A stretch of 32,000 nucleotides of DNA from an uncultured archaeon (GTDB lineage: Archaea > Iainarchaeota > Iainarchaeia > Iainarchaeales > CSSED10-239), in the NCBI GenBank assembly GCA_964463155.1, contig CAYXAY010000005.1, forward strand, positions 1 through 32,000, in the 5' to 3' direction. The translations under genes were made by a program, and so were the position numbers. This document shows positions 1 through 29,991 of this stretch, piece after piece. The notes under the pieces were generated by a model. It had not been told where the DNA came from. It made no database searches and worked only from the letters and a program-made list of their open reading frames with translations. Numbering within the stretch: position 1 is the first letter of the stretch; the number at the start of each line of letters is the position of its first letter.

Positions 1-3000
1 GTGTCCTGGTCCAAGTAATGGAATTATTGCTACTAAAGATTCTTTGGCTGCTGTGATTAGTGCACAGGTTCCAATGCAACCAATAAGAAATGTTTTTGCT
101 CTTTTTGAAGCTCTGTTGGTTCTTGCATTGATTTCTGATTTGCTTTCTTTTAGACCACATACTTCTGAACCAAAGAAGATTGTTGATTTGTCTTGAAGAC
201 CCGTGTTGTATTTCTTTAATGTTTCACAATATTCTTCTTTGTCTTTAGGATTATATTCATTTGTCCAGTCAAGATATACATAAAATATTCTTTCCTGAGT
301 TGTTGTGTCTTTTTCTAATTCCTCTATTGATTGCTGTGTTTTTGTGAATAACTCAACGGGGGTTATACCATAACTTAGCAAAGTTATGTTTGCATCTGCT
401 TTTCTGTTGCCACTGCTGTATTTTCCTGTGGCCTTGTAATTGCTTGTTGCGGTGACCACTAGCTTTTGATTGCGCCAGTTTGAGATTTCTGAAATGTCTC
501 CAAGAACACAAAGATTAAAGTCCGTGTCTTTGTCTTTCTCTAACTCTAAAGACATTTCTTTTTCATAGTTCTTTCCTTGATAATCAAAGCTTGTCTTTAC
601 TCCAGAAATGTCTAATGTTGTTACTTTTATTTGCTCTGTCACTGCTGACTTTGCGGTTATCTTTGTACATTTCTTTGTTGGCGTTAATGATAACTTGTCT
701 GTTTGTGGCCTTAGGCTTAATGTTCCAAAGTCTTTGTCAAGAGACAATATTAGCATGTAGCTTCTGTCTTTAGAGATACAGATGTCGGCTGGTTTGCCGT
801 TAATTATATCTTTAATGTTGTTTGAAGTTTCTGTTATAAAGTCATTAGAAAACTCAAATCTATTGTCTTTATCCACTCCAAACTCTTTATTGATAACTAT
901 ATTTATCTTCTCTGGTTGAGGAGATGAAGGCTCTGCAGGATATGCAAAGTAAAGCTTTGCTATTGCTCCTTTCTCTTCTGTTATTTCTCCAACAGAGATG
1001 TCTAGTTGACTAAATTTCTTTCGTTCATCAGTTCTTAACTGGAATCTGTCTTCTGAATTAAATATTCCTTTTGAGACTGGAAGACCAAAGTCTCTGTCTC
1101 CACTTATTACTGTTAGCCAAGTGTCTCCGGTATTTGTTTTTGAAAAGAATTTTTGATTTTTTGGAAGATAAATCATTAGGTTTTCTATTTGTTTTTTACA
1201 TTGTTCTGTTTTATTGCCATCAATTGTTACAAAGAAATAAGCTCTTTCAGGATCTATCTGTGTTGAGTTTCTTGTTGCGACAAAACCGTCAATTGTAATC
1301 TTGTATCTTCCACAGCCGTTTATCTTGTTGTCAAGATGTATGATATTACCCATCATCTGTAGACCACCGGTTGTTACTCCTACATTTTTTCTTACTGCGT
1401 AGTTTTTTATTGTAGGATATTTCTTGTCTTTGTCTTTGTCATTATCAAGCACTAATTTCATTGTCTTTTCAGAGACGGTGTCGTTTTGGACATAGATTGG
1501 AATGTTTCTGTAGTCTTTCATCTTTTCTAGTGTTAATAACTCAGAGATTGGACAACCTGCTGTCCTTGCAGTTGCAATCGAACAATTGGTTTGGCTTATC
1601 TGATTATCGACTTGCTTTGATGCGTTGATTGCTGCCGTATGAAGCTCTTGAATCTTTAATGCTATAAACTCTGTTGCGCTTTCGGCATCACAATAACCGT
1701 CTCTCTTACAGTCTTCAACAACTATTGGGTAGGTTATTGTTGTCTTTTCATCTTCTCCACAAACTTTTACTTCAACATTTTGTTCAACTCTTTTGTAATC
1801 CTCTTTTAAATCTGGATTTGTTTCTTCAACCTCTATTGAAAAAAGTATTGCTTCAGAAGTTACCATGCTTAATGGGGTGTTGTTTAATGGAAAGCCAATC
1901 AATCTTACGACGCTATCTGTTAATGCAGGGAAATATTTGCTTGGCTTTACTTTTAAATAGAATGATGCTGTTTGTCCTCGGGCTATATAGCCTGTTGGGA
2001 TGACAGGAACTAATGCAACTGATGTGCCTTTGCCAAATGCCTGTTCAAAGGAATTTGGGTCAATATTTGGATTGATGTCATAGGAGATATAACCTATTGG
2101 GTCAGCACACCAGTTTGTGATATTTATTAACTTTGTTTTTTCCTCTCCAACCTTTGTGTACATATAGATTTTCTTTTGGTCAATCTTCAGACAGCCTGCT
2201 GAAGAGAACTTAAAGCCAACACTAAACCTTGCTTCTACTGGGTCTTTTGAACCTTTTGACTCTGCGCTTACCTTGTAATAAAGTGTTGCAGAGGTTGCCT
2301 TGTCAACTTTTCCTTCATACTGGATATATATTTGTTTTGTTTGACCTGGCCTAATCTCTTCAAAACTCATTGGTTCCATCTTGTCTTGGATATTTGACGG
2401 AAGTTTTTCATCAAGTCTTGAAATTTGAACATTCCTTAATGGATATTTTCCGGTGTTTGTTATTGAAAACATTGTTCTGTTTGATGCAGGGATTTGGTCA
2501 ACCACTTGTGACAAGGAGATTACTGATGTTGGTGGTGTTACTCTTATTGTTTTTGAATAATCAACAAGATCAACATTTAACCTCGTGTTTTCCAAAGCGT
2601 AGTAAGGGTTTCTCCAAGCAATCTCAAAGGAATAGCCTTTTGTTGTTTTTCTTGCCTTTGTGTTTCTTAATGTTATTGTGTAATCGCTAACTTCTTCATT
2701 TGGTTCTATTATTAGTGATGGCAAATCTATCTGTAGATTTTCATCTTTCTTTATTGTTGTTCCTTTTGCTTTTAATAGCTCTGGGGTTATTGTTAATGCC
2801 TTTTGGCAATTGTTTTGTATTGACAATATCACTTCTTGCTCTGAACCTTCGCTTATACCTAAATAACCATAAACTACTTGTGGCTTAATGTCAAGGCATG
2901 TTTCTTTTACCTTTCCTCTATAAAAATTAATTTCTATTTCTTTTGCAACCTGCTTGTTGCCTATAAAACCATAAATTGTCATTATTGATTTTGCAGATGT

Positions 3001-6000
3001 GAACTTTATCTTTGGATCAATTACTGCAAATAATACTATCTCTGCTGGCATAGATGGTTCAAGGGATGCTGGAAGTTGTGTTTCTACAGTTAGTCCTGCA
3101 ACCTTATCAATGTCAGTTAAGACATAGCTTAAATCTTTTATTTGGATATTCCCTTTATTGATAATTGTTATTCTTTGACTTTCTTGGCTTATATTTTCTC
3201 CAAAGGTTATGTCTATGCTGTCAGGGGCATAGATTAGTCCCTTATCTGCAATTGTTAATTGCTTAGTGTAAGGAATATATCCTGGAGCGCTAACTTCTAA
3301 ATATGGCTTTGAGCTTGAAAAGTTTTGATTGATTATGTATACCCCGTTCTTTCCTGTTTTTGAACTGGCTATTAAGTCTCCAAACTCAGAGGTTATTTTT
3401 ACAAAGGCATTATTTATTGGTACCTTTGTTTCAGAGTCCTCTACACTTACTGTTATTGGAGAGTTGTAAGCTAATATCTCTTGTACATTAACAAGAAGTT
3501 TTCTTTTTTGCTTGACTTCAAAATTTAGTCTTTTTTCTATGACTTGTGAATTGAATGTGGTTTTAATGTCAAGATAGGTTACTCCTGTGTCCTTTGCCTT
3601 GAATAATAAATATTGTTTCCTGTTGTTTCCTGATTGTATTGACATGATTGAAGAAGTAAGTTTTGTGTCTGTTGAGTCAAGGGAACTGCGTGGCATAATT
3701 TCTGTTTCCTGATAATTGATTAACCCTAGTATTGGCCTGCTCTTGTCTGTCTCTGCGTTTATAGTTATTTCTCCATTTAACAAACTATAATAAGTAATTT
3801 CTAAAAGATACATATCATCCTTTACTGCAAAAAAGCTTTCCTTTGAATAATCAAAGCCTTCTGAGTCTAGAAACCTGTAATCAATACATAGGTTGTTTGA
3901 ACACTCTGCTGGTGTTTCTAAAACATTTAATCTTAATTGCTTGGTTTTTGCATAAAGGCCTTGTCTTGAAGAAACATTTCTTGAAACGTCAAGTATTGTA
4001 TCTTTTGGGTCTCTATAGATTGAACCAGAATAATCACACCAAGTTCTATAGCTTGCAGACATTGTTCCTATCTCGTTTGCTTTTACCTTTATCATTACTT
4101 GTTTTTTTGTTATGCTTGCAGATGACCAGTAAAGCTCTAACCATTTGTTTAATTGGTTTGGTTCTCCAACATTATCATAGTCTATTGATTGTTGGTTGTT
4201 ATTGTAGGTTGTTGAGTATTTGAATTTTGTTGTGTCTGCTTTAAAGCCTGTTATTCCATAACTCATGTTTTCAGAATCGTTTTCATAATCTTCTCCAATC
4301 CGAAAATGAGCGCCACAACTTGTTGCAGCGGTTGGAAATTGCAAATCAAAGACAAGATAATAATCTTTATCAACACTTAAAACTGTTGTTGGGCTGTTGT
4401 GTGTGTCTCTTAGTTCTACAAAGGAGATTACTGGATTTAAATCCGTTACTTCTGGCTTTAATGTTAAATTAAGATAATTTTCGTCTCCGATTATTGTTGA
4501 CATCACTGTTGTGTTTCCATTGTTGTCTGTGTATTCGATTATTAGGTTTTTGTAACCCTGTGTTTCAAATGTAAATGGCAAGTCTTCTAAAATACATTTA
4601 TCTTTAAGTATTGTTCCAAGTTTTGATTTTATTATTACACAACCTGTTGTTATTGGATTGCCGCGTGTGTCTTTTAATTTAAGAGTTATTGTTTTTGTTG
4701 CATCATTAACTATTAAAATTACTTTATTGTCCTTGAGAGGATCAATTGTTGTTTCTTGGCTTTCTGTTGTGTCGCCAACAATTCCTGTGACTTTGTAATC
4801 GTCTCTGCTCTTTGCATAGACTGATGTATGACCGGCAATATCAACAGTAAGAGGACCGGTTCCTATTGGAACATAAGTTCCATTTAGTTTTTTGTAAACC
4901 AAAACATTTGCTGTTGGTATTGGGTTGTTCACTGAATTTAAAACATATATTGATAATTTATAGATGTCTGCTGAACCAACCTTTGCTAAAGAAATCTCTA
5001 AGTTGTTTGAGGCATCTATGTTTGCAAGATACTGTGAGCAGGCATAGCCTTCTTTACAAGCAGTGACAACATAGTTTGTGTTTTGGTCAAGACCTGTAAA
5101 GGTTACTTGCCCATCCATTTTTGTTGTTGATGTTAGAAGTTCGTTTCCTGTTAAGTTGTAAAGAGTTACCTTTGAATCAAGCAATGGACCTACAAGATCT
5201 GCAACAACCATTACATTTAGGTTTGAACTTCCTGCAATTAATTTTACTGTAAAGCTTTCTTCGTTTTTTGATATCCTGTAGGTTTTGTGGTCCTTGTCAC
5301 TGTCATAGATTCTGTAGCCTTCTTTTGTTATAACAAAACGTATTACTTCTCCAACAGTTGTTTTAAATGTTACTTTTCCAAGTTTTGTTTTGGTATTGTT
5401 TATTATTTCTCCTGCTCTGTTGTATACTGTAACATTGCAATCATCAAGAAGATCTCCTAATTGGGTTGTTGCAAAAATTGTTAGTCTTGCTTCGCTTCCT
5501 TGAAGTAATGCTTTTTCTAAATCAAAATCCAAGGAGATGTTTTGTGTCTCAAGTAACTTTGTTAGTCTTATGGATTTGCTTACTGTTTCGTAGTTTTCAC
5601 TTTCAATTGTTAATGTTATATCTTTGTTTTGAGGAACTGATTCTATTGTAATTTCGCCAAGGTTGTTTGGGGTTGCAGTTATTTGTTGGGACCTCCCGTT
5701 TAGTCTGTAGTCTAATGTCGCGTTATAATCTGGTATTGATTTTTTGGTTTGGTTGTCTATAATTGTTAATTTTAATGTACCATAATTTATCAACTCATCA
5801 AACTTGATTGAAAGTGGTTTGCTACTATCAAAGGTTATTTGTTTGTTTAAATAGTGTGAATAACCTGTCTTTGTGGCATTGATTCTATAATCTGCACCAG
5901 GACGCAGGGCTATTCTTTTTTTGTCACCATCACTCATTATTCCTGTAAACTTTGTCTTGTCTTTTAGATCGCTTATAGAAACAGAAACATCAGTTAGTTT

Positions 6001-6360
6001 TGTTCCGGCATAATCTGTTAAAGAAAAGGTTACTGTTGTTTTTGTTGCAAAGTTGATTATAAAAAATATTAATATTGCAAGAATGATAATGGTCAGGCAA
6101 GTAACAAACGCAAAAGCCGGTATTCCTTTTTTCTCTAAGGTGTCATTAAGCTTGTTTAAGGCAATTCCTTTTTCTGACAACCAATCAGAAAAAGTAAAAT
6201 ATCTTTCTTCAAACCACTGGTAGGTTTTACCAAAGATGTTTTTCTCTTTTTGTTTTTCTATTTCTTTTTCTGAGTAATCGTCGTTGACTTCTGAATAATC
6301 TTCAATTTCCTCATCTGAGAAATCATCTTCTTTTGTTTTTTTTGTTTTTGCTTTTGCCAT
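1..6360 (-). CDS. Giant membrane-anchored surface (adhesin/S-layer-like) protein. N-terminal 2,120 codons only; the ORF continues past the left window edge.
   Basis: The minus-strand frame is open from ATG (6360-6358) to position 1. I spot-checked several 60-nt blocks for TTA/CTA/TCA in frame and found none. N-terminus reads MAKAKTKKTKEDDFSDEEIE. One TM helix, PAFAFVTCLTIIILAILIFFIINF, lies at about 6046-6120. Repeated ~80-90 aa beta-sandwich modules follow, resembling CarboxypepD_reg/PEGA (e.g. VTFSLTDYAGTKLTDVSVSISD...YRINATKTGY; LNVMVVADLVGPLLDSKVTLYNLTGNELL...YVVTACKEGY). Cys-containing regions lie further downstream. It is missing from the ORF track because it is edge-truncated. Confidence 0.85.
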   Translation of the reverse strand, partial: MAKAKTKKTKEDDFSDEEIEDYSEVNDDYSEKEIEKQKEKNIFGKTYQWFEERYFTFSDWLSEKGIALNKLNDTLEKKGIPAFAFVTCLTIIILAILIFFIINFATKTTVTFSLTDYAGTKLTDVSVSISDLKDKTKFTGIMSDGDKKRIALRPGADYRINATKTGYSHYLNKQITFDSSKPLSIKFDELINYGTLKLTIIDNQTKKSIPDYNATLDYRLNGRSQQITATPNNLGEITIESVPQNKDITLTIESENYETVSKSIRLTKLLETQNISLDFDLEKALLQGSEARLTIFATTQLGDLLDDCNVTVYNRAGEIINNTKTKLGKVTFKTTVGEVIRFVITKEGYRIYDSDKDHKTYRISKNEESFTVKLIAGSSNLNVMVVADLVGPLLDSKVTLYNLTGNELLTSTTKMDGQVTFTGLDQNTNYVVTACKEGYACSQYLANIDASNNLEISLAKVGSADIYKLSIYVLNSVNNPIPTANVLVYKKLNGTYVPIGTGPLTVDIAGHTSVYAKSRDDYKVTGIVGDTTESQETTIDPLKDNKVILIVNDATKTITLKLKDTRGNPITTGCVIIKSKLGTILKDKCILEDLPFTFETQGYKNLIIEYTDNNGNTTVMSTIIGDENYLNLTLKPEVTDLNPVISFVELRDTHNSPTTVLSVDKDYYLVFDLQFPTAATSCGAHFRIGEDYENDSENMSYGITGFKADTTKFKYSTTYNNNQQSIDYDNVGEPNQLNKWLELYWSSASITKKQVMIKVKANEIGTMSASYRTWCDYSGSIYRDPKDTILDVSRNVSSRQGLYAKTKQLRLNVLETPAECSNNLCIDYRFLDSEGFDYSKESFFAVKDDMYLLEITYYSLLNGEITINAETDKSRPILGLINYQETEIMPRSSLDSTDTKLTSSIMSIQSGNNRKQYLLFKAKDTGVTYLDIKTTFNSQVIEKRLNFEVKQKRKLLVNVQEILAYNSPITVSVEDSETKVPINNAFVKITSEFGDLIASSKTGKNGVYIINQNFSSSKPYLEVSAPGYIPYTKQLTIADKGLIYAPDSIDITFGENISQESQRITIINKGNIQIKDLSYVLTDIDKVAGLTVETQLPASLEPSMPAEIVLFAVIDPKIKFTSAKSIMTIYGFIGNKQVAKEIEINFYRGKVKETCLDIKPQVVYGYLGISEGSEQEVILSIQNNCQKALTITPELLKAKGTTIKKDENLQIDLPSLIIEPNEEVSDYTITLRNTKARKTTKGYSFEIAWRNPYYALENTRLNVDLVDYSKTIRVTPPTSVISLSQVVDQIPASNRTMFSITNTGKYPLRNVQISRLDEKLPSNIQDKMEPMSFEEIRPGQTKQIYIQYEGKVDKATSATLYYKVSAESKGSKDPVEARFSVGFKFSSAGCLKIDQKKIYMYTKVGEEKTKLINITNWCADPIGYISYDINPNIDPNSFEQAFGKGTSVALVPVIPTGYIARGQTASFYLKVKPSKYFPALTDSVVRLIGFPLNNTPLSMVTSEAILFSIEVEETNPDLKEDYKRVEQNVEVKVCGEDEKTTITYPIVVEDCKRDGYCDAESATEFIALKIQELHTAAINASKQVDNQISQTNCSIATARTAGCPISELLTLEKMKDYRNIPIYVQNDTVSEKTMKLVLDNDKDKDKKYPTIKNYAVRKNVGVTTGGLQMMGNIIHLDNKINGCGRYKITIDGFVATRNSTQIDPERAYFFVTIDGNKTEQCKKQIENLMIYLPKNQKFFSKTNTGDTWLTVISGDRDFGLPVSKGIFNSEDRFQLRTDERKKFSQLDISVGEITEEKGAIAKLYFAYPAEPSSPQPEKINIVINKEFGVDKDNRFEFSNDFITETSNNIKDIINGKPADICISKDRSYMLILSLDKDFGTLSLRPQTDKLSLTPTKKCTKITAKSAVTEQIKVTTLDISGVKTSFDYQGKNYEKEMSLELEKDKDTDFNLCVLGDISEISNWRNQKLVVTATSNYKATGKYSSGNRKADANITLLSYGITPVELFTKTQQSIEELEKDTTTQERIFYVYLDWTNEYNPKDKEEYCETLKKYNTGLQDKSTIFFGSEVCGLKESKSEINARTNRASKRAKTFLIGCIGTCALITAAKESLVAIIPLLGPGH

Positions 6361-6443
6361 TATTTATCTTCTCTTTATATTTTTTTAAAATATATTTTTG
6401 ACATATAAATAAAAGTATAATATATTTATATATGTTTATATTA

Positions 6444-7138
6444 GGGTTTGTAGAACCCCTCTAACTCCTTAATCGTAACATAAATAATACATCGGTCTTA
6501 CTACCTATATTTTATGATTTTTCAGGATAAATATATTACAACCAATATCTTTTAATAGTTTCTATAAGCAAGTTGAACGAGTTTTTGGTGAAGTTAGGTT
6601 ACCTTTTCATTTTCCTAAGTACTCTAACAAGCTATACAGCAATTTTGTTCATGTATATTTGTTGAGTTTAAAAGAACGACACAAGAGTTCTTATCGTCAT
6701 TTAACAGAATTGTTAAACGACATAACTGTTTTAAGATTGCTTGGAATCCAGAAGCAACCACACTTTACAACCCTGCAAAAATTTGTAAGTAAGATTAGTA
6801 AAGACATTTTACAAAAACTAGTAATGGCTTGTCATAAGCTTATCAACAGCAACAAGATGATTGTTGCAGTTGATTCTACGGGTTTTGTAAATGTTAATCC
6901 AACTTATTATTGTCTTAATAAGTGCGGCATTAGACCACCATACAAAAACTTTACACAAACAAGTATTATTGTAGATACAGATACAAAATTAGTACTATTT
7001 GTAACTGCAACAACGCAGGATAACCAGCAAAAGCAGGTTATCCTAAAAGTATTAACCTATAATTTAGAACAGTTAAGCAGAAACAAAAAAGCAATTTCTT
7101 TCACAATATTAATATTCTAAAAGGATTTCTACAGAACC
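6444..7138 (+). mobile_element. Non-autonomous (internally deleted) IS element of the IS4/IS5 DDE superfamily
   Basis: Imperfect terminal inverted repeats: GGGTTTGTAGAACC (6444-6457) versus GGATTTCTACAGAACC (7123-7138, reverse complement GGTTCTGTAGAAATCC). An identical 9-bp direct repeat TTTATATTA lies immediately outside both ends (6435-6443 and 7139-7147), consistent with a target-site duplication. The interior holds only a broken transposase. Confidence 0.6.
6569..7120 (+). pseudogene. DDE transposase remnant with no in-frame ATG, an N-terminal frame break and an internal deletion
   Basis: The frame reads QVERVFGEVRLPFHFPKYSNKLYSNFVHVYLLSLKERHKSSYRHLTELL...PHFTTLQKF...AVDSTGF...IIVDTDTKLVL, then jumps to a C-terminal-type tail VILKVLTYNLEQL. 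This is the typical IS4/IS5 N-terminal and first-Asp region, but most of the catalytic domain is absent. A short MIFQDKYITTNIF* ORF (6514-) sits upstream in another frame. Confidence 0.55.
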
Positions 7139-7211
7139 TTTATATTAAGAAAAAAGAATATAACTCCAAACTATTTACTAGAAAGAGTTATAAATAAGAA
7201 AAAAAGAAAAA

Positions 7212-7769
7212 TTAAAAAGAAACCTTAATGTTCTTTTTTTCTTCTGCACTTGTTTCTAAGAAAGCCTCATCCTTGAAACCAAACATCTTTGCAAACATGT
7301 TGTTTGGTACAGTTTGTATTTTGTTGTTGTAGTCCATTACTGTGTCATTGTAGTATTGTCTTGCATAAGCTATTTTGTTTTCAATACCTGATAATTCCTC
7401 TTGAAGTTGTAAGAAATTTTGGCTTGCTTTAAGGTCAGGATAATTCTCAACAACAATGTTTAGTAGCCCGCCAATTGCTTTAGACATTTGGTCGTTTGTC
7501 TTCATTGTTGCTTTGATGTCCTTTGCTTGCATTGCCTGATTTCTTAGTTCTGTTATCTTTGTTAATGTCCCTGCTTCGTGTTTTACATAGCCTTTAACAG
7601 TCTCAACAAGATTTGGAACAAGATCATATCTTTTCTTTAACTGAACATCTATCTGGCTCCATCCGTTTTTTACCTTGTTTCTTAAACGTATCAGGCTATT
7701 ATACATGAAAAGAGCCATTAACAGAATAATTCCAAAAATAACAAGAATTATTATTAGTGCTATTGCCAT
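7212..7769 (-). CDS. lemA: LemA family membrane protein
   Basis: N-terminal TM helix, then NSLIRLRNKVKNGWSQIDVQLKKRYDLVPNLVETVKGY...RQYYNDTVMDYNNKIQTVPNNMFA, a characteristic LemA sequence. Confidence 0.9.
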   Translation of the reverse strand: MAIALIIILVIFGIILLMALFMYNSLIRLRNKVKNGWSQIDVQLKKRYDLVPNLVETVKGYVKHEAGTLTKITELRNQAMQAKDIKATMKTNDQMSKAIGGLLNIVVENYPDLKASQNFLQLQEELSGIENKIAYARQYYNDTVMDYNNKIQTVPNNMFAKMFGFKDEAFLETSAEEKKNIKVSF

Positions 7770-8335: not shown

Positions 8336-8713
8336 TTAAATATAATATTTATCTAATGATTTTTTAATCAAAATAACATCGTGATTTGATTGTTGATTTT
8401 TTAAATAAATGTCTATAAATAAAACTTCATTTTTTAGTTTTGACAAATGCCAAATTACTCTTGCGGTGAAATCGCGATCATCTGATATTCTCATTCGTGA
8501 TTTTATTACTAAATATTCTGAATATTTTTCCCCAAGTTTTATTCGCTCATTTCTTTTTGGAGATTCTTTTAATAGTTCTTCTCTTCGTGTTAAAATGGTT
8601 TGTTTAATTATCTCAAAATCTTTTACTAAACATCTTGGGTGTTTCTTTAAAACCTTATCAAATTTCTGCTCAAAATCAGAAGTGTTTTTAGCAACACAAT
8701 CAATGGATTCCAT
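8336..8713 (-). CDS. RelE/ParE-superfamily-like small protein, putative toxin partner of the upstream DUF4065 gene
   Basis: 125 aa. C-terminal pattern GEKYSEYLVIKSRMRISDDRDFTARVIWHLSKLKNEVLFIDIYLKNQQSNHD resembles the RelE/ParE core (x-R-hydrophobic-x-Y/W ... short strand ... basic tail). Its start lies 10 nt after the stop of the DUF4065 gene. Confidence 0.45.
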   Translation of the reverse strand: MESIDCVAKNTSDFEQKFDKVLKKHPRCLVKDFEIIKQTILTRREELLKESPKRNERIKLGEKYSEYLVIKSRMRISDDRDFTARVIWHLSKLKNEVLFIDIYLKNQQSNHDVILIKKSLDKYYI

Positions 8714-8723
8714 TGCTAATAAC

Positions 8724-9212
8724 CTACTCTACTAGTTTTTCTAAGGACTCTGCTCTGTAAAATACTAAATCATAATCTATTATACCATTATCTTTAGAAA
8801 CTAAATAAGGATTATCTTTGTGAGATAAATTTGATATTTGAGTCGCAGAAAGAGCGCCTAATTTTTTTATAACTTTATCAATTGTAGATATTTCCTCTTT
8901 TGATAATGTACTTAATTTAGGGGCATCTAAAATTTTATACTTTGTGTTTTGTGATAACTGTTTGGTTTCTATTTTTTTTCCCTTTTCTAATTTATCAATT
9001 ATTATTGCAATGTGTACTGGGGCGGGGCCAAACTCGATCTTTCTATATTCTTCATTTGTAATTGATTTATTGTTTTTTTTATAGTGATTAAAATCCGAAA
9101 AATATAATAATTTATATAAAACGGTCTTTCCAAAATTTGTATTTTTATCACATTTAGAAATAATATAATGGGCCATTTCACTTAGCTTTTCAGAATTGTA
9201 ATTTAAGACCAT
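8724..9212 (-). CDS. DUF4065 (Panacea / SocA-like) domain protein, putative antitoxin
   Basis: MAHYIISKCDKNTNFGKTVLYKLLYFSDFNHYKKNNKSITNEEYRKIEFGPAPV matches the conserved DUF4065 core (KLxKLLYxxD...G.PIT...Y...GPV). The internal ATG at 9212 is preferred. The ORF-track extension to 9344 overlaps the upstream gene and is preceded by a TTTATATA box near 9250. Confidence 0.7.
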   Translation of the reverse strand: MVLNYNSEKLSEMAHYIISKCDKNTNFGKTVLYKLLYFSDFNHYKKNNKSITNEEYRKIEFGPAPVHIAIIIDKLEKGKKIETKQLSQNTKYKILDAPKLSTLSKEEISTIDKVIKKLGALSATQISNLSHKDNPYLVSKDNGIIDYDLVFYRAESLEKLVE

Positions 9213-9295
9213 ATTTATCACAGCTATACATATATTATTAATTCTAATATATAAAAAGCTTTCGGAGGTAGATGCCCAGTGCGAAAAAATCGAAA

Positions 9296-9652
9296 TCAGT
9301 GCTCCATTTCTAGAGTGTTTGGATAATTTGGGTCCGGAACACACCCAACTCCACTTGGAGCAAACTTTTCATTACAATAACAATAATTGACTTCATGTTG
9401 TGGGAGAAGCTCTGGACAGTTTTCTAATGATTGAATCGATATTGAACGTATTATATTATTTACAAAATCTAACATAGATAATTGATTACAATTTAAGAAT
9501 AGATTTAGGGCAGGATAATCAAAATGACGAGAAAAACAAATATAGTTGTCTACTATTTCTAATATATTTGAATCAATTATAAAAACCCTACTATTTCCAT
9601 AATTAAATCCTCTAAAAATTAAATTTATATTTCTTGGTGTTTTTTTAGACAT
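9296..9652 (-). CDS. Hypothetical protein, Cys-containing, no recognisable family
   Basis: Open frame of 118 aa from the ATG at 9652 (MSKKTPRNINLIFRGF...). The codon style matches its neighbours. I recognise no motif. Confidence 0.4.
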   Translation of the reverse strand: MSKKTPRNINLIFRGFNYGNSRVFIIDSNILEIVDNYICFSRHFDYPALNLFLNCNQLSMLDFVNNIIRSISIQSLENCPELLPQHEVNYCYCNEKFAPSGVGCVPDPNYPNTLEMEH

Positions 9653-10009: not shown

Positions 10010-10588
10010 TTACCGCCTAATACTTTTTTGCCTTTGTGGTTGACTTTTCTTTTTTTGTTTTGGTCTTGGTATATTTCTGACCTTTAATTTTGCTTTTTGA
10101 GAACGGATTACTCCATTTAATAAATTTAGTAATCTTTTATGTACTTTTTGTATATTTTCCGGTGGTTTTTTTAGCTTTTCTTGTTTTGTTGTAGTATCTG
10201 GGCAATCATCTAGACAACAAAATGTAATTTCATTTTCTTTTGGATTTTTACTTGTGGTTCCATGAAATGCGTTTTGGAAAAAATCCGTTTTGTATAGTTC
10301 TAGCTTTTTTTTAATGTCTGTTTTCCCCACACCAATTAAATTTAATACTATTTCCATTAAATCTGAATGTGTTGCAAAATTTACATCCCACTGTTTTGGA
10401 GCAACAAGGATATAATCTCTGTTCTGATAACTTGTACAAAAAAATTTGAATTCTTGATGATCTTTTGATTTTTTATGAACAATAAAAACACAGTTGCCTA
10501 ATTCTGTTTTATTGTAATATGTCTTTGTTTTTTCTTGTATAGACATATTTTTTTGATACTCTGGAAGCCCTAGATTGCTGTTTCCCAT
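10010..10588 (-). CDS. Hypothetical protein with a highly basic C-terminal tail
   Basis: 192 aa from the ATG at 10588 (MGNSNLGLPEYQ...). It ends in KVRNIPRPKQKKKSQPQRQKSIRR and starts 12 nt after the ppsA stop. No family recognised. Confidence 0.5.
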   Translation of the reverse strand: MGNSNLGLPEYQKNMSIQEKTKTYYNKTELGNCVFIVHKKSKDHQEFKFFCTSYQNRDYILVAPKQWDVNFATHSDLMEIVLNLIGVGKTDIKKKLELYKTDFFQNAFHGTTSKNPKENEITFCCLDDCPDTTTKQEKLKKPPENIQKVHKRLLNLLNGVIRSQKAKLKVRNIPRPKQKKKSQPQRQKSIRR

Positions 10589-10600
10589 ATTTTTCAAAAT

Positions 10601-13015: not shown

Positions 13016-13073
13016 AGTTAATCATATTTATTTTCTTAAATATATTTTAAATAAGAATAAAGGATTTATATAT

Positions 13074-13532
13074 TTATTCTTTCTCAAACTTATCCCACGG
13101 GAAAGCCACCCACTTGTCTACTTCTTTTGCATAGAAGTCTGGAGTGATCTTGTTGTGTTCTTTATTTAGAAAGATTGTTGCACTCTTTACTGACTTTACT
13201 TTGTATGTTTTTAAAAGCTCTTCTAAAAAGATAATTGTCTTTCCTGTGTCACAGATGTCATCAACTATCAGGATGTTTTTGCCTTTTAGAAGTTCTTTGT
13301 CTGGAGCATTTAAGAGTTTCATCTCTTTTTGCTGTTTGTTCTCATAAGAAGAAACAGCAACACTCAGTATGTTTTTAGTTTCTAGAAGCCTTGCAAGAAG
13401 TACTGCTGGGAAAAAACCACCAACAGAGACTCCAAGAATATAATCCACTTTAAAGTTACTGGTTTTTATTTGCTCAGAAATTCTTAAACACAATGTTTCA
13501 ATTTCTTCATAGCTAAAGTTTATTATTTCCAT
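13074..13532 (-). CDS. gpt: Purine phosphoribosyltransferase, xanthine-guanine PRT (Gpt)-like
   Basis: PRPP-binding motif ILIVDDICDTGKT. SSYENKQQKEMKLL and WVAFPWD parallel E. coli Gpt (SSY..Q.ELKVL, W.EQPWD). ATG at 13532; the ORF-track start at 13541 is a GTG. Confidence 0.75.
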   Translation of the reverse strand: MEIINFSYEEIETLCLRISEQIKTSNFKVDYILGVSVGGFFPAVLLARLLETKNILSVAVSSYENKQQKEMKLLNAPDKELLKGKNILIVDDICDTGKTIIFLEELLKTYKVKSVKSATIFLNKEHNKITPDFYAKEVDKWVAFPWDKFEKE

Positions 13533-14842: not shown

Positions 14843-14951
14843 ACAAAAGATAGCCTAAAGTGGTTTTTAAAACATTGCACACGAGCAAAGTTTTTGGGAC
14901 TGAAACCAATTCTCCCAAAAGGGGTGCCATTGGACACCCACCCCCGAAACC

Positions 14952-14959
14952 TTTAAATA
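14952..14959 (+). promoter_or_regulatory. Archaeal TATA box for the wHTH/RelE-like/XPD transcription unit
   Basis: TTTAAATA is preceded by purine-rich GAAAC and lies about 24-31 nt upstream of the ATG at 14983. This implies a leaderless or near-leaderless mRNA. Confidence 0.5.
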
Positions 14960-14982
14960 TCGTTTTTGGTACTATTATTATT

Positions 14983-15294
14983 ATGACTACAAAATATGTT
15001 GTTAAAGAAAAGAAAAGAAAAAAACTAAAAGAACCAATGATTGATTACTATCCAACAGGTCGCGAAGTGTTTCTTGTTCAAGATATTCTTGAAAAATATC
15101 CAGAAGCAATAATGAAAGAAACAGAACTTGAAAAGAAAGTCAAAGATAAAGTCCGCAAGGTTCATTTAAAACAAATATTAAAATATTTAGAATATACTAA
15201 TCAAATCGTTTACTCAAAAAAAGGAATAACCTATATACACCCTGCATCAAAAAAATTAAAAGATGCAATCAAAAAAGGGATTGTGTATGGTTAA
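14983..15294 (+). CDS. Putative antitoxin-like wHTH protein
   Basis: 103 aa from the ATG at 14983 (MTTKYVVKEKKRKK...LKQILKYLEYTNQIVYSKKGITYI). Its stop overlaps the start of the RelE-like gene (ATGGTTAA, 8-nt overlap). Confidence 0.5.
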   Translation: MTTKYVVKEKKRKKLKEPMIDYYPTGREVFLVQDILEKYPEAIMKETELEKKVKDKVRKVHLKQILKYLEYTNQIVYSKKGITYIHPASKKLKDAIKKGIVYG

Positions 15295-15625
15295 AATACA
15301 ATTTTCAGAAGATGCAACTAAAATACTTGAAGAAATAAATAAAGATAATTCAAAACAAGGAAAAATGTTAAGTAAATCTATTCCCGAAAAATTAGAATTA
15401 CTTAAACAAAATCCCCATTTTGGAGAACCTATCAAATCAAAATTTATACCTAAATGGTATTTAAAAAAATATAATGTTAAATTTTTATTAAAAGTAAGAC
15501 TTTCAGAATATTGGAGATTACTTTACACAATCACAGATACTGGAGAAATAGAGATTATTATAATTATCGTTGATCTTATTGGTCATAACAAATATAACAA
15601 ACTTTTTGGATTTAAAAAGAAATAA
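15287..15625 (+). CDS. RelE/ParE-family toxin-like protein (archaeal RelE type)
   Basis: LLKQNPHFGEPIK...VRLSEYWRLLYTITDTGEIEIIIIIVDLIGHNKYNKLFG matches the RelE pattern (NP..G..L...R.G.YR.IY.I......I.I..IGHR..Y). Confidence 0.65.
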   Translation: MVKIQFSEDATKILEEINKDNSKQGKMLSKSIPEKLELLKQNPHFGEPIKSKFIPKWYLKKYNVKFLLKVRLSEYWRLLYTITDTGEIEIIIIIVDLIGHNKYNKLFGFKKK

Positions 15626-18972: not shown

Positions 18973-20502
18973 ATGAAGACAATCTTTGTCATTCCCCCAT
19001 ACTACCTGCTGGAACCGCCAGCAGACATTAGCAAACACTGCCAAAAACCAAACCGCGACTTGCAAACAAGAACTTTTCTTATGCCATATTTTCCTTTTTT
19101 TCTTAAATCTTTTTCTTTTTTGTGTCTTGATTTTGAGCTTTCTGTTTCTAAAAGGCCTTACACTTTATCTTCTTGTCTTGAGATAATACTTTCACAAAAA
19201 CCAGACAAAATTATCTTTGATCTAACAGTTGACAAATCCTTTGAAAATTATCATATTAATCTAGAAAACATTGTACAAAAAATTAGAGTGTTTTTACCAA
19301 AGATAAAGATTGAATTTCTTGAGAATATTAGAATTGAGAAAACAGAGAGATTTCAAGAAAAGAACCAAGTAAAGATTCAAGAGATTATAAAATACATAAA
19401 AAGAAATGAGCAGGAACTGTTTGTCGTCCAAGATTTAGTGCAAATCAAGGAAATTTACAAAATACTTAATCAAGAGAATTATGGTTTCTGGTTTTATAAC
19501 TTTAAACAAATACACATAAAAGAAATCATAAAGCTAAAGAAAAACTATTTTGATTTGAATTTTTTATTGTCTTGCAATTATCTGGATATCTCTGTTGAAG
19601 AAGTTAAAACTCTTGCAGGGCATGGACTTGAAAAACTTATTATACAATTAAATAGTGATTGTGAGTTTTTGAATTGCTTTCAAGAACATTTTGAAAAGAT
19701 TGAATCAATTTCAAATTGTTGTAAATTAAAGATCAATATTTATCCAAACCTCTCACAAATCAACAACCAATCGTTTGTTGAGTTTCTAAATCTTTTGGAT
19801 TCTAGAAATTTAGAATATCAGATAATGCAAACAACTGGAAAAATAGAAAACAAAAAGGAATTTATTAATTTTGGAGTTATTTCTTTGTTGTCTTCACTTG
19901 ACAAAGACAAGGGGATTATCAAAAGACTAAAAGAAATACCAATCATACCTGAGAAAAAGACAGTTGAGCATATTATTGATTTTATATTAAGGACCGAAAA
20001 CAAATATTTAGAGTTTTACATCGACATCGCTCATTTTCTGGATGGTTTTTTTACCAAAGAAGAAATAATTGATTATCTAAACAAACTGCATCCTAACACA
20101 AAAAAAGAAAACCTAGAAAAGATTGTCTATGAGTGTATTAATCTTTTGGAAAAAGAAATGTTTGTTGATTATCTTAATTCAAAAAAAGAAGTTTCAAAAA
20201 ACCAAGCAGAAGAACCGAAATCACATTATGTGAGTGTTTTTCCTAGACTTAATAATCTTTTTTTGATGTATTCTGGTTCTGAAAAAGGATATATATTTGG
20301 TAAAAACACAAAAAAACTTGAGGAAGTGCCAAGAGACATTTTCTTTTTCTTTGTGTTTTCTAAAGGCATCTTTGTGCTTAAAGAAGTGGCACACAAACTT
20401 CATCTTCTCTTTAAAGATACAAAAGAATTTAGTACAGAAAATTATCTAAAGAGCACAAAGAAAATCTATAACACACTTAAACACTATGGGCTTTGTAAGT
20501 AA
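18973..20502 (+). CDS. Hypothetical 509-aa protein (orphan)
   Basis: Long open frame with an ATG start and neighbour-like codon usage. There are weak, unverified resemblances: the N-terminus KTIFVIPPYYL is like the B12-binding/radical-SAM N-domain but no CxxxCxxC is present, and the C-terminal ~90 aa is PqqD/RRE-like. The true start could be the M at 19081. Confidence 0.6.
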   Translation: MKTIFVIPPYYLLEPPADISKHCQKPNRDLQTRTFLMPYFPFFLKSFSFLCLDFELSVSKRPYTLSSCLEIILSQKPDKIIFDLTVDKSFENYHINLENIVQKIRVFLPKIKIEFLENIRIEKTERFQEKNQVKIQEIIKYIKRNEQELFVVQDLVQIKEIYKILNQENYGFWFYNFKQIHIKEIIKLKKNYFDLNFLLSCNYLDISVEEVKTLAGHGLEKLIIQLNSDCEFLNCFQEHFEKIESISNCCKLKINIYPNLSQINNQSFVEFLNLLDSRNLEYQIMQTTGKIENKKEFINFGVISLLSSLDKDKGIIKRLKEIPIIPEKKTVEHIIDFILRTENKYLEFYIDIAHFLDGFFTKEEIIDYLNKLHPNTKKENLEKIVYECINLLEKEMFVDYLNSKKEVSKNQAEEPKSHYVSVFPRLNNLFLMYSGSEKGYIFGKNTKKLEEVPRDIFFFFVFSKGIFVLKEVAHKLHLLFKDTKEFSTENYLKSTKKIYNTLKHYGLCK

Positions 20503-24608: not shown

Positions 24609-25298
24609 TTAAATGAACTTTAACCTAAAGAATAAAAAATAGGATAAAGACATTATAATCATATAAACTATTGATTTTATTAGATTCCATGCCACCAAAT
24701 AAATAAGATATGTAAATCTTAAAGTTTGGGAAACAAATGTTGTTTGAATGTGTGGTGACAAGAAAGTAAGGTATGCTACAATCGTTAAAGTTGATTCCAC
24801 CAAAAATATCAACGCAACTATTCTAAAAACCCTGTACCAGGAAACATTAAACTTTATATTGTGTTTTGCTGTTGCCATCCCCATAAATGCTATTGTTCCT
24901 ACATTTATACAGAATAGGGCTATTGAGAAAAACAAGAAAATTGGGTTGTTTTTTGCGGCAGATATTGCTGTTGGGGCAAGACTTGCATAGATTGTTAATT
25001 GAAATGCAAAATCTAGAATTACTATTATCAATAATATGATAAAAGGCATCCAAAGATAATGGTAATATCCGTTTTTTAGATACATCTCTGTTAGAAAATT
25101 CTTGTTTTGCGTTCTTTGCTGATAGCTTGTCCTATCGTGGAATTTGTTTGCTGGAATTCTTTCTATGATAAAGCCGTTTCTGTTTTGCTTTTTTGTAATT
25201 TCCTTTCTTTGATGAGGCGATGTTTTTTTTGAACGCTGGATATCTGTTTTTACAAATCTGTTGTTTGGGTATTTGTTTTTCCTTTTTTTATTTTGCAT
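24609..25298 (-). CDS. Hypothetical multi-pass membrane protein with a ~75-aa highly basic N-terminal tail
   Basis: MQNKKRKNKYPNNRF...KKQNRNG, followed by about five hydrophobic segments. ATG at 25298; the ORF-track start at 25301 is a TTG. Confidence 0.55.
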   Translation of the reverse strand: MQNKKRKNKYPNNRFVKTDIQRSKKTSPHQRKEITKKQNRNGFIIERIPANKFHDRTSYQQRTQNKNFLTEMYLKNGYYHYLWMPFIILLIIVILDFAFQLTIYASLAPTAISAAKNNPIFLFFSIALFCINVGTIAFMGMATAKHNIKFNVSWYRVFRIVALIFLVESTLTIVAYLTFLSPHIQTTFVSQTLRFTYLIYLVAWNLIKSIVYMIIMSLSYFLFFRLKFI

Positions 25299-25346
25299 CA
25301 AATATCACATTTATTTTATAGGGGGTTGTATTTATTAAGATATGGT

Positions 25347-27278
25347 TTAGGATATTCCTAAAAACTCCTTTAATTTTCTTTCAACTATCTCGTTTGCTTT
25401 ATTGCCATCAATCAAGCCATTGGTTTTAGCCATTAGTCTTCCAATCAACAGACCTTTTGCTCTTTCTCTTAATTCTAGTATTCTTGATTGGTTTTCTTGG
25501 ATTATTTCAGACATTATTTTGTCTAGGTCAAGAGTTTCCAAATCTTTGAATATCTTAAGCCTTTCTATTACTTCTTCTACGGTATTGTCAGAATTATTTA
25601 ATTCTATATAGATTTCTATTAACTTTGTTTTTGGTAGCTTGTTGAAATCTTTGTAGGAGAAAAACTCAAGAAGTTTTTTGCTTGTCACATTTTCCAAATC
25701 AAGTTTTCCTTCCCTTGAAAGATTGATAAGTTCTTCTAGAAGGAAAACAGCAACCTGTGTTGGATTACGTTCTGGGTTGTTAAGCATTATCTTTTCAAAG
25801 ATTGTAGCATAATTGTCAAGAACCATCTTTTCTGTTAATTGATTACTTATCTTGAAGTTTTCAAGATATAGCTTTTTTCTTTTTTCTACTGACAATGGCA
25901 TTTCCTTTTTTGTTTCTTCTAATAACTCTTTTGTAAAGACAATTGGCAAAAGATCAGTTTCAGGATACATTCTTGTTCCGCCAACAGATAATGGTCTTTG
26001 ATATTCTGTATTGCCGTCAGCATTGACAAGCCTTGTTTCTTTTGGTATCTCTTTTGAGAAAAGGTTTATTCTTTCCTCTAAGACCTCTTTAACATGTTCT
26101 ATTTCTTTTTTATCGCACATCACTAGGATATATGAGTCTTTTTCAGAGAGATTAAGATATGACTTAACTTTTTTTATTTCCTCTTCTGTTATTCCGTAGT
26201 TTGGGAGCTCGTCAGAATGAAACAAACCCTTTAGTGTTGTCTTTGCCTTTAGAATGCTTGCAAGTTCTGTTCCCACTCTCCTGTTTGGTTGAACCTCTCT
26301 ACCAAGAATATTGTTAAACCCTAAAAGTAAGAAGCCAAAGACGCATTTGTTTTGGTCAAGAGAAGTTTTTATTGCCTTTGACTCTGTGTCTTTGAAGATG
26401 TCTGTTAAGTCTTTTTCTTCAAGAACAATTTTTAAAATATTTCTTTTTTGTAGTTCTTCTTTAATTTCTAAAAGATTTAGTTGCCTTATTATTTCTCTTT
26501 TTATAATTTCCGGAATCAGATCTAAATCCTGACAACCCTTTATCTCTACTCTTGAACCTTTTGAGATTGAGACGTTTATGTCTTGGCGAATTGAGCCAAG
26601 ACCTCTTTTAACAAGGCCTGTTGTTCTGAAGAGTTGTCCAAGAAATAATGCGACCTTTTTTGTGTCTTCAGGAGTGTGCATGTCATGCCAAACAACCATC
26701 TCTATCAATGGTATTCCTAGACGATCAAGAGAATAGATTACTTCTGTTTCTTTTCTTTCAAGAACTCTTGCGGCGTCTTCCTCTAAAAGGATTTTGTCAA
26801 TCCTTACTTTCCCAAAATCAAAATTAAGATATCCATCAGTTGCTATCATGGTTGTTCTTTGAAAGCCAGAGACATTTGAACCATCAATCACTTGCTTTCT
26901 CATAATTATGGATTTATCAACTAATTTGCTGTTTGTTAGATTAGAAATTATTATTGCAATTTTTAGGGAGTCAGGATTTGTTCTGATTGGCGGTTGACAA
27001 TCCGCTTCCACTAAACAATTACAGACATTGTAGAAATAATAAACATAAGTTTTGTCTTTTTTGTGTTCAGAAACTGCCGCAAAATCTAATTCTCCTGATT
27101 CAGAATAAACAGGCCTTAATTTTCGTCTTATAATTCTGTCTGGCTTTGTTCCGTCTTTTATCATCTCTGATTTACATTTACAGAACAGTTTTCCTGTGTC
27201 CAATTGTTGATGAATCTCAAGGCCGCAAGAAAGACCAAGTGTTTTGTAATCAATTGAATCGATATTTATTTTATTCAT
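25347..27278 (-). CDS. gatE: Glutamyl-tRNA(Gln) amidotransferase subunit E
   Basis: 643 aa. GLSCGLEIHQQLDTGKLFCKC at the N-terminus, GatB/E catalytic core, AspRS-like insertion and a YqeY-like tail. Confidence 0.92.
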   Translation of the reverse strand: MNKINIDSIDYKTLGLSCGLEIHQQLDTGKLFCKCKSEMIKDGTKPDRIIRRKLRPVYSESGELDFAAVSEHKKDKTYVYYFYNVCNCLVEADCQPPIRTNPDSLKIAIIISNLTNSKLVDKSIIMRKQVIDGSNVSGFQRTTMIATDGYLNFDFGKVRIDKILLEEDAARVLERKETEVIYSLDRLGIPLIEMVVWHDMHTPEDTKKVALFLGQLFRTTGLVKRGLGSIRQDINVSISKGSRVEIKGCQDLDLIPEIIKREIIRQLNLLEIKEELQKRNILKIVLEEKDLTDIFKDTESKAIKTSLDQNKCVFGFLLLGFNNILGREVQPNRRVGTELASILKAKTTLKGLFHSDELPNYGITEEEIKKVKSYLNLSEKDSYILVMCDKKEIEHVKEVLEERINLFSKEIPKETRLVNADGNTEYQRPLSVGGTRMYPETDLLPIVFTKELLEETKKEMPLSVEKRKKLYLENFKISNQLTEKMVLDNYATIFEKIMLNNPERNPTQVAVFLLEELINLSREGKLDLENVTSKKLLEFFSYKDFNKLPKTKLIEIYIELNNSDNTVEEVIERLKIFKDLETLDLDKIMSEIIQENQSRILELRERAKGLLIGRLMAKTNGLIDGNKANEIVERKLKEFLGIS

Positions 27279-28638: not shown

Positions 28639-29991
28639 TTAAATATCAAAATTATCAAAACTTTCTGGAATTTCTTTTTTTGAAATTTCTCCGGCTATGG
28701 TTTTTTCCATGTATTTTATTATATCTTCTTTTGTTTTAAATCTTGAAAGAGCAATACTTAGTTTTAGATAAGCAACTTCTGGTAACATGTCGTGTTGGTC
28801 AAGATAACAGCCTCCTGCTTCTTGAATATATCTTAAATTTGCATAAACGTTTCCATTTACCCTGCCAAATAAACACAGAGTGGTTATAATTACAATTATT
28901 CCTTTGTCTGTTGCTTTCTTAATATATGGAACCCAGCTTTTCTTCTTGTCAAAGGATTTGTCGGTTCCACCCATTCCTGTTGGGCAATGTCCAAGTCCTG
29001 TACCTTCTATTACTAGCCCTTTATAGCCTTTTTTAATATACCACTCTATGATTTTTGGATCGCTATTTGGATAAGCTTTAACTATTGCAACATTGTCTGA
29101 AAAATCAATAAATAGTTTTGGCTCTATCCTTGGTCTTACAATCAATTGCCTTTTGTCTTTTAAGTATTCTATTTTTCCATTTTGATAAACCCTTGCTATT
29201 GGAAAATCATTGATTGCCCTAAAAGAATCTCTTCTTGAGGTGTGCATTTTTCTACATTTTGTTGCTCTTATTACATTACAGAAATCATCACTAATTGAGC
29301 CGTGCATCATTGTGTAAATTCCAGGCACTTCTTCTTTAATAAATTGAGCAGCACATATTAGATTCATAGCTCCATCAAAACTGGCCCTGTCTGGAGACCT
29401 CTGAGCGCCAACTAAGATTATTGGTTTGTTAATATTTTCAATCATAAAAGAAAGAATAGTTCCAGTCCAGGTTAATGTGTCTGTTCCGTGAGAGATTATT
29501 ATTCCTTTAATTTCGGGGGTAATCAACTGCTCATAAACCTTTTCTGCAATCTTTTGCCAATCTTTATAACCTAGATCTTCGCTTCCTTTCATAGCTACTG
29601 GTTGTATATTTTTAATATTAACAATTTCAAGAAGTTCAGGAACTGTTGAAATTATTTCTTCTGGAGTTCTTGACATACTTACTCCGCCTGTCTTATAATC
29701 AACATGTGTTCCTATTGTCCCTCCTGTTGAAACTAAAGAAATTGCAGGAAGTGCTTCATTTTGTTTAATTGTTAATTTGTGTTTTTTTCCTAAATTTTTC
29801 TTTTCATTCTCTATTTCTATTTTTGTGTCTTTATCAGTAGTTACTCCAATATTATAACCATTATCTAAAAGTTTAAGAGTTAGTTCTTGGATATTTTCTT
29901 TTTCTATAAACTTTACAAGATAACCTTTATAGATAATTTTATTTTTATTAATAGTAATTAATTTACCTCTATCTTTTTCAGACACAATCAT
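28639..29991 (-). CDS. gatD: Glutamyl-tRNA(Gln) amidotransferase subunit D (asparaginase-like)
   Basis: 450 aa. GatD-specific N-domain, then asparaginase motifs ISLVSTGGTIG and ISHGTDTL. Confidence 0.92.
   Translation of the reverse strand: MIVSEKDRGKLITINKNKIIYKGYLVKFIEKENIQELTLKLLDNGYNIGVTTDKDTKIEIENEKKNLGKKHKLTIKQNEALPAISLVSTGGTIGTHVDYKTGGVSMSRTPEEIISTVPELLEIVNIKNIQPVAMKGSEDLGYKDWQKIAEKVYEQLITPEIKGIIISHGTDTLTWTGTILSFMIENINKPIILVGAQRSPDRASFDGAMNLICAAQFIKEEVPGIYTMMHGSISDDFCNVIRATKCRKMHTSRRDSFRAINDFPIARVYQNGKIEYLKDKRQLIVRPRIEPKLFIDFSDNVAIVKAYPNSDPKIIEWYIKKGYKGLVIEGTGLGHCPTGMGGTDKSFDKKKSWVPYIKKATDKGIIVIITTLCLFGRVNGNVYANLRYIQEAGGCYLDQHDMLPEVAYLKLSIALSRFKTKEDIIKYMEKTIAGEISKKEIPESFDNFDI

Follow-up and report, generated by a model that had tools for sequence, protein, structure and literature searches.

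The 32,000-nucleotide (nt) stretch of DNA from a DPANN archaeon that is analysed here (the window) begins with an incomplete open reading frame (ORF) on its minus strand (1..6360), which encodes the first 2,120 amino acids (aa) of a giant surface protein of about 3,000 aa. We read this protein, at a probability of about 0.5, as a membrane-anchored projection for binding another cell and cutting into its wall. The initial annotation of the window had proposed either cell-cell attachment or an envelope scaffold. Matches of the stalk to adhesin-type, immunoglobulin (Ig)-like domains fit the former, and the predicted C-terminal cell-wall hydrolase of the orthologues points to wall attack rather than to a passive scaffold.

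In the mechanism that we favour, the protein would be rod-like and exposed at the cell surface, with a type-II anchor (N-in, C-out), and the ORF would represent the two-thirds of it nearest the membrane. A short tail in the cytoplasm, together with one helix, would hold it in the archaeal membrane. Beyond these would come a long stalk, made of about fifteen predicted beta-sandwich domains, some of adhesin type, and a disulfide-stabilised Cys-rich module. As in the full-length relatives of the same subfamily, the distal third would comprise hydrophobic segments rich in Gly, a helical region that evolves fast and a papain-like Cys/His domain of NlpC/P60 or NlpC/P60-like type. The stalk would project the distal end past the archaeon's own envelope toward another cell, the Ig-like modules would bind that cell and the terminal enzyme would cut its peptidoglycan locally, NlpC/P60 domains at the peptide stems and SLT domains at the glycan strands. 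Local cutting may then let the archaeon attach tightly to a partner or prey, or gain access to it. The target cell would most likely be a bacterium, with a pseudomurein-bearing methanogen as the alternative. We infer the topology, extended shape, target cell and hydrolase end of the window copy from comparison with its relatives.

Full-length relatives and their terminal domains

Homologues in related genomes, which the initial annotation had thought worth seeking, were found in the form of ten orthologues and a wider family of 124 clusters (see below). The orthologues span the whole visible part at 49-63% identity and are 2,828-3,133 aa long; the call for P0001 is shortened at the N-terminus, the full protein having 2,953 aa. 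Past the window's end they continue with about 100 aa of Cys/Gly-rich, weakly hydrophobic sequence (P0003 aa 2090-2200), the conserved start of which is visible in the window copy (aa 2091-2120; 1..90, minus strand). A gappy helical region of about 500-600 aa comes next, in which pairwise identity falls from about 0.65 to 0.25-0.30, as expected for a part that contacts a partner. Comparison of its profile with PDB sequences gave coiled-coil matches only, which were regarded as noise. A conserved segment with another Gly-rich hydrophobic stretch then leads into the terminal domain. No C-terminal transmembrane (TM) helix was detected in the orthologues.

The terminal domain was identified by Pfam as NlpC/P60 in P0009 and P0005 (82.4 and 28.4 bits, respectively; threshold 23), where it is built differently from that of close relatives. 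All ten orthologues keep a Cys and a His of catalytic type. In the divergent form of the domain, carried by P0001-4, 6-8 and 10, an invariant Cys (in C-A-x-F-V), an invariant His (in H-V-V-L-Y-V-G-K) and a His/Gln position are in register with the canonical NlpC/P60 motifs. We therefore describe this form as NlpC/P60-like and not as a proven member of that family.

An exhaustive HMMER search with a profile of aa 1505-2090 against 1.84 billion cluster representatives found the Cys-rich module of the protein in 124 clusters at E≤1e-3, 118 of them at E≤1e-10. In nearly all of them the protein is 2,400-3,400 aa long and the module spans about residues 1,500-2,100. A word-indexed homologue search, even with a 15-sequence profile, returned only about 16 proteins and badly underestimated the size of the family. 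Among the large members (at least 2,300 aa, n = 89), an N-terminal helix is present in 86 and a G-[IVL]-P motif before it in 87; 13 form the window's group. By these sequence criteria, the window protein is a member of a sizeable, unnamed, architecturally fixed family. Most of its proteins are named 'hypothetical' at NCBI, a label that conceals a recognisable architecture; P0157 appears as 'carboxypeptidase-like regulatory domain-containing protein' and P0161 as 'transglycosylase SLT domain-containing protein [Candidatus Diapherotrites archaeon]'.

Five family members carry a canonical NlpC/P60 domain and ten the divergent Cys/His domain. In addition to P0005 and P0009, the NlpC/P60 model (PF00877) scored above 23 bits in P0145 (88.1) and P0147 (42.8), and P0189 was recognised by jackhmmer. 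P0161, P0163 and P0193, which share a scaffold of about 2,700-2,900 aa, end in SLT lytic transglycosylase domains (44-53 bits; threshold 21.3). NlpC/P60 and SLT are unrelated families whose sole common substrate is peptidoglycan, and their occurrence at one and the same distal position suggests that the protein acts on the wall of another cell. Since archaea lack murein, the terminal enzyme would not harm its producer.

Two features of the distal third were recorded alongside these results. P0145 (3,182 aa, from a Logan assembly) has two such domains in tandem, one divergent Cys/His (aa 2843-3009) and one canonical NlpC/P60 (aa 3055-3182), so the two are not simple replacements of one another. 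The Gly-rich, weakly hydrophobic segments (P0003 aa 2090-2200 and about 2825-2845; e.g. VVGSAFGAVANAIMGGGTG) resemble glycine-zipper membrane-active motifs, and their position is conserved across the wide family, including members without an enzyme domain.

Several results weigh against a wall-cutting function. The similarity of the divergent terminal domain to NlpC/P60 is weak by hhalign (59% probability, E 9e-5), and the domain had neither a Pfam match nor a match among PDB sequences. The C-terminal third of the window copy lies outside both the window and its contig, and its enzyme domain is assumed from the orthologues; judged from these, the informative part of the protein is beyond the window. 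The weakly hydrophobic segments near aa 2090-2200 of the orthologues make the topology of the distal third uncertain. Finally, no enzyme was recognisable at the C-terminus of 58 of the 89 large members, which have a coiled coil, a hydrophobic segment rich in Gly and a small domain there, so hydrolysis is not a universal function of the family. It follows that the scaffold must also have an enzyme-independent role, which is probably adhesion.

A suggestion that a diversity-generating retroelement (DGR) might target the unseen C-terminus was not borne out. There was no reverse transcriptase among the scanned neighbours and no template/variable-type repeat pair of at least 40 nt in the window or in three related loci (L001, L003 and L004). 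Copies at least 90% identical to one another differ at scattered sites with no hot spot, the C-terminus of the window copy and the DNA downstream of it being unseen.

Reading frame, anchor and stalk

Re-translation of the minus strand over 1-6360 (minus frame 1) gave 2,120 codons and 0 stops, an absence with a probability of about 1e-72 from base composition. The remaining five frames contain 80-227 stops and no open run longer than 141 codons, and open runs in shuffled versions of the region reached a maximum of 157 codons. The GC content of the ORF falls from 0.40 at codon position 1 to 0.27 at position 3. No start earlier than the ATG at 6360 is possible, as an in-frame TAA lies two codons upstream, and the N-terminal beginnings of the orthologues agree with it. 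These results confirmed the claim of the initial annotation that a single, incomplete minus-strand ORF of more than 2,120 aa occupies one-fifth of the window. The sole cause of its omission from the program-made ORF list was that the frame runs off the window's end. The NCBI contig that carries a 100%-identical GatE is 33,263 nt long, so that the window covers almost all of it, and the giant gene is therefore truncated by the assembly. No exact 50-nt matches to the window's left end were found in the genome and metagenome contig collections, and no exact matches to the window's LemA and GatE were found in a gene-position index.

The charged N-terminal tail and single signal-anchor helix of the initial annotation were both recovered. 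The tail, predicted to be cytoplasmic (aa 1-83; 6112..6360, minus strand), contains 15 K/R and 21 D/E residues and includes, at aa 47-83, a conserved motif (..Y..E.KYF.F.D.L.EKGI.L.KL.D.LEK.GIP) that is common to the downstream giant paralogues and to 87 of the 89 large family members. The helix (aa 84-102; 6055..6111, minus strand) has a Kyte-Doolittle mean of 3.17, is the sole strong hydrophobic helix in the visible 2,120 aa and is conserved in the full-length orthologues. Its predicted topology is N-in, C-out.

Six tandem beta-sandwich repeats of about 90 aa and of the CarboxypepD_reg/transthyretin-like type follow (aa 105-644; 4429..6048, minus strand), and a seventh CarboxypepD_reg domain is located at aa 966-1045 (3226..3465, minus strand). 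The latter gave the best Pfam match of the protein, to PF13620, which passed its gathering threshold (62.5 vs 32.3 bits, best stretch aa 969-1039); this family was matched by 10 of 11 family members. By hhalign, repeats 1-6 matched the aa 966-1045 domain with probabilities of 96.7, 89.9, 96.1, 96.0, 72.1 and 72.6%, respectively. Profile-profile comparison was needed, as a single-domain hidden Markov model built from that domain did not find the other repeats. Sub-threshold matches within aa 105-644 were to bMG3, SdrD_B and PEGA, and the full-length profile gave a weak match to a fibronectin-binding protein in repeat 1 when compared with PDB sequences. The initial annotation had counted at least five consecutive repeats, labelled them PEGA/CarboxypepD_reg-like and described the protein as built from them. 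The count held and the CarboxypepD_reg half of the label was confirmed. PEGA (PF08308) fell just short of its threshold (20.0 vs 20.8 bits, aa 244-279) and indicates a related beta-sandwich signal only, and the repeats, although real, cover only about one-quarter of the visible sequence.

Between the sixth and seventh repeats lie two larger, adhesin-type beta-sandwich domains (aa 645-965; 3466..4428, minus strand). The AlphaFold2 model, built from a 14-sequence alignment, was all beta, with two sandwich domains and a pLDDT of 83. The best Foldseek matches, Ig-like modules from bacterial adhesins or pilins and from the legs of integrin alpha, were PrgB, the C-domains of AgI/II, CfaE/B, integrin alpha and SdrG/FnBPA (E 1e-10 to 1e-7). 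Identity to these adhesin modules was 6-12% and TM-scores were 0.2-0.34, low values that arise because two domains were superposed at once. In the first domain, the polar residues H685, R687, D727, K739, R772, R783 and D787 are invariant even in relatives with 22-25% identity, which suggests a candidate ligand-binding site.

The next region (aa 1046-1504; 1849..3225, minus strand) is beta-rich, with paired invariant Cys residues at 1155/1185 and 1390/1418. It contains at least two related units of about 110 aa (about 1056-1160 and 1290-1420; 75-85%) and gave weak CARDB/NPCBM_assoc/DUF7507 matches. Its fold, and the number of domains that it would comprise, are predictions from these features.

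The Cys-rich signature module of the family (aa 1505-2090, about 600 aa; 91..1848, minus strand) was modelled by AlphaFold2 with a pLDDT of 70.5 as an alpha+beta sub-domain, a mixed sub-domain, an MG/CARDB-like beta-sandwich and terminal helices. No Pfam match was obtained for the module even at E≤10, and a viral fold search returned generic beta-sandwich matches only. Structural matches were limited to the beta-sandwich (complement MG domains and CARDB), leaving the alpha+beta part, about aa 1525-1720, without a match among the matches listed. Across 11 sequences, 24 of the 28 Cys residues of the visible protein are invariant and arranged in pairs, which fits an extracellular, disulfide-bonded protein. 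Beyond CarboxypepD_reg, no Pfam or NCBIfam family exceeded its threshold in the visible protein, as had been anticipated for a remainder that could not be named; most of that remainder proved to be further beta-sandwich, and only about aa 1525-1720 would qualify as an undescribed domain.

Known systems and competing explanations

Large DPANN proteins with a murein transglycosylase domain, which had been seen before in a few DPANN genomes, were described as fam00969 by Castelle et al. 2021 (PMC8204110). That study reported enrichment of the family among Pacearchaeota and Woesearchaeota and suggested a role in the binding and degradation of bacterial walls, a proposal repeated in later surveys (PMC10936187; PMC11537232). 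A DPANN origin, a length of up to about 3,000 aa and a predicted extracellular location are common to fam00969 and the window protein. The peptidoglycan-cleaving domain of fam00969, like those of the window protein's relatives, is of a kind not otherwise native to archaea. In contrast to the SLT head of fam00969, the window's group has NlpC/P60 or a divergent Cys/His domain, and an SLT/GH23 domain was found neither in the visible 2,120 aa nor in the ten orthologues. The lineages also differ, the window being near Iainarchaeum; this comparison of the families was made by description. The fam00969-like make-up is present in full in the distant scaffold relatives P0161, P0163 and P0193. We read the general kind, large DPANN wall-cutting surface proteins, as already in the literature, uncharacterised, and the window protein as a variant of it. 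The shared 2,100-aa scaffold has, to our knowledge, not been described previously.

The SPEARE proteins of Nanohaloarchaeota (3,300-8,500 aa), for which host interaction was proposed (Hamm et al. 2019, PMC6642349), are likewise giant, membrane-anchored, mostly extracytoplasmic DPANN proteins that combine adhesion domains with a lytic or toxin element. However, no sequence relationship to the window protein was detectable, and the features particular to SPEARE proteins (a serine protease, laminin-G, BC-toxin-like parts, usually a C-terminal anchor and a cytoplasmic restriction-endonuclease domain) were not found in the giant. The protein was not classified as a SPEARE protein, as serine protease, laminin-G and type III restriction-enzyme domains were not among the Pfam matches of the window protein and ten orthologues. 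The tandem Ig-like sandwiches at aa 645-965 and the rod-of-beads design recall Gram-positive adhesins (PrgB, the antigen I/II family and the MSCRAMMs SdrG and FnBPA). These have a C-terminal wall anchor with an LPXTG signal, whereas the giant is archaeal, has an N-terminal helix and shows no LPXTG signal in its visible 2,120 aa, and an LPXTG adhesin was accordingly rejected. Secretion, conjugation and phage-entry machines use NlpC/P60 and SLT (PF01464) hydrolases as a wall-cutting domain that terminates a long carrier of helical or extended form, tape-measure and conjugation-associated hydrolases being examples. The NlpC/P60 or SLT domain of the relatives similarly ends a long carrier, but there it is joined to an archaeal surface stalk of 2,900 aa. 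A bacterial alpha-2-macroglobulin was also considered and rejected, since bMG3 scored 31.2 bits against a threshold of 34.9 and the thioester motif C[GLAS]EQ was absent from the 2,120 aa. No match to a well-characterised S-layer or adhesin family over the whole visible length of the protein was found.

If the stalk delivers interchangeable C-terminal lytic domains, the protein could be a contact-dependent weapon of the polymorphic-toxin type, which kills competing bacteria rather than attaching to a host. Antibacterial effectors are known among both NlpC/P60-type amidases and lytic transglycosylases, an archaeon would need no self-immunity, and one scaffold bears differing heads (canonical NlpC/P60, divergent Cys/His, both in P0145, SLT or none), the terminal domain of P0005 and P0009 being unlike that of close relatives in build. 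However, the giant gene is followed in all loci by a conserved pilin-like gene of about 600 aa and not by immunity-like or cassette genes, the protein stays membrane-anchored, and no toxin-delivery or pre-toxin domain was recognised. Sequence alone does not separate a weapon from a wall-cutting attachment device, and we consider the weapon unlikely.

A purely structural role, in which the giant and two downstream giants with the same anchor form a cell coat or S-layer-like scaffold with no action on other cells, would account for the N-terminal anchor, the long run of beta-sandwiches, the three-giant cluster with its shared anchor motif and the lack of an enzyme domain in most family members. 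It is unlikely, because hydrolase heads and a fast-evolving distal region are hard to explain in the coat of a cell without murein, and because the family is rare and lineage-restricted. N-glycosylation sequons are also not enriched (24 vs 21.7 ± 4). An archaeal S-layer protein was rejected as an identification: Pfam and NCBIfam scans with motif and TM checks found no S-layer family, no PGF-CTERM (no PGF motif) and no C-terminal anchor or TM helix in the orthologues, and the visible 2,120 aa contain no LPXTG, PGF or thioester motif. It is more doubtful still that the protein is an adhesin for non-cellular substrates or biofilm (mineral, polysaccharide or detritus), with a terminal enzyme that scavenges peptidoglycan fragments as nutrients. 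Its beta-sandwich arrays do resemble CBM, CARDB and MG domains, and other peptidoglycan-salvage enzymes have been reported in DPANN (PMC11537232). Nevertheless, all carbohydrate-binding families were below threshold, the best structural matches were cell-cell and cell-host adhesins, and a 3,000-aa tether would be a costly way to display a scavenging enzyme in a small genome.

The preferred reading, in which the projection binds a second cell and cuts the wall of that cell, can be extended to a dedicated archaeon-to-bacterium contact apparatus with exchangeable wall-cutting heads. Here the Gly-rich segments and variable helical region would insert into the partner membrane after the wall is breached, and the giant would work jointly with the pilin-like protein and two sister giants. 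This extension is speculative and unlikely; if true, the apparatus would be the first defined molecular machine for DPANN exploitation of a bacterial host. Whether some DPANN live on bacteria rather than archaea rests largely on scattered reports of murein-degrading domains. The window protein is now placed in a coherent family of about 120 clusters with a fixed 2,100-aa scaffold and two unrelated kinds of predicted peptidoglycan-cutting head. It provides testable constructs, namely the terminal domains for activity on sacculi and the aa 645-965 domains for cell binding. The cluster of LemA, giant, pilin-like gene and further giants may serve as a marker for contact sites in enrichments.

Gene neighbourhood

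The window has a GC content of about 31%, and the neighbours of the giant gene include GatD, GatE, an XPD-type helicase, phosphoenolpyruvate (PEP) synthase, a class I aminoacyl-tRNA synthetase and tRNA-Gln. The closest named relatives of GatE are from Candidatus Iainarchaeum (57-61% identity), with Micrarchaeota and Diapherotrites farther away. The source organism is a DPANN archaeon near Iainarchaeum (Diapherotrites).

The upstream neighbour of the giant gene is a LemA-family gene (7212..7769, minus strand; 206.6 bits) that is kept in every locus examined, and the order PEP synthase, low-molecular-weight protein tyrosine phosphatase, LemA, giant is conserved in four related loci (L001 to L004). 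Directly downstream of the giant in these loci is a gene for a protein of about 600 aa (L001 10296-12092; L002 19406-21196; L003 18887-20614; L004 19401-21209). In all four the protein starts with M-x-x-K-G-F-T-L-F-T-A-L-I-S-L-L-L-V, an N-terminus that resembles a class III (type IV pilin-like) signal peptide. The Pfam N_methyl match was weak (13.2 bits, E 0.067), and no family was found for the rest of the protein.

A second giant gene follows in all four loci and a third in L001 only (L001 12245-19312 and 19365-20244), the further giants, one or two per locus, having sizes of 2,355 aa and more than 1,914 aa. Their similarity to the window protein is confined to the N-terminal motif and TM helix, aa 47-102 of the window protein being 43% identical to the second giant (E 4e-10). 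This pattern suggests an anchoring or sorting module that the clustered giant surface proteins have in common.

An AT-rich region directly upstream of the ATG (6361..6430, minus strand) is promoter-like and may function as such; a 50-nt part of it resembles (72% identity, direct repeat D2) positions 13028-13077, which precede the PEP synthase gene. The LemA-to-giant intergenic region as a whole (6361-7211) is 850 nt long in the window, compared to about 160-190 nt in L001, L003 and L004. It contains a plus-strand ORF of 153 aa (6659-7120) with an 'AVDSTGF' motif and a weak, sub-threshold DUF772 transposase match (E 0.015), which may be a decayed insertion sequence element inserted upstream of the giant gene.

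Elsewhere in the window, three ORFs had no Pfam family at E≤0.001 (18973-20502, plus strand, 509 aa; 10010-10597, minus strand, 195 aa; 24609-25301, minus strand, 230 aa). Two toxin-antitoxin-like pairs were observed. In one (14860-15625, plus strand), a ParE-family toxin gene (15263-15625) overlaps an upstream 144-aa ORF without a family; in the other (8336-9344, minus strand), the gene for a SocA/Panacea antitoxin-domain protein (8724-9344) lies beside a 125-aa ORF, also without a family. The gatE (25347-27278) and gatD (28639-29991) genes, usually an adjacent pair, are split by a minus-strand gene (27283-28626) that encodes a Schlafen AlbA_2 / HATPase_c_4 / winged-helix protein.

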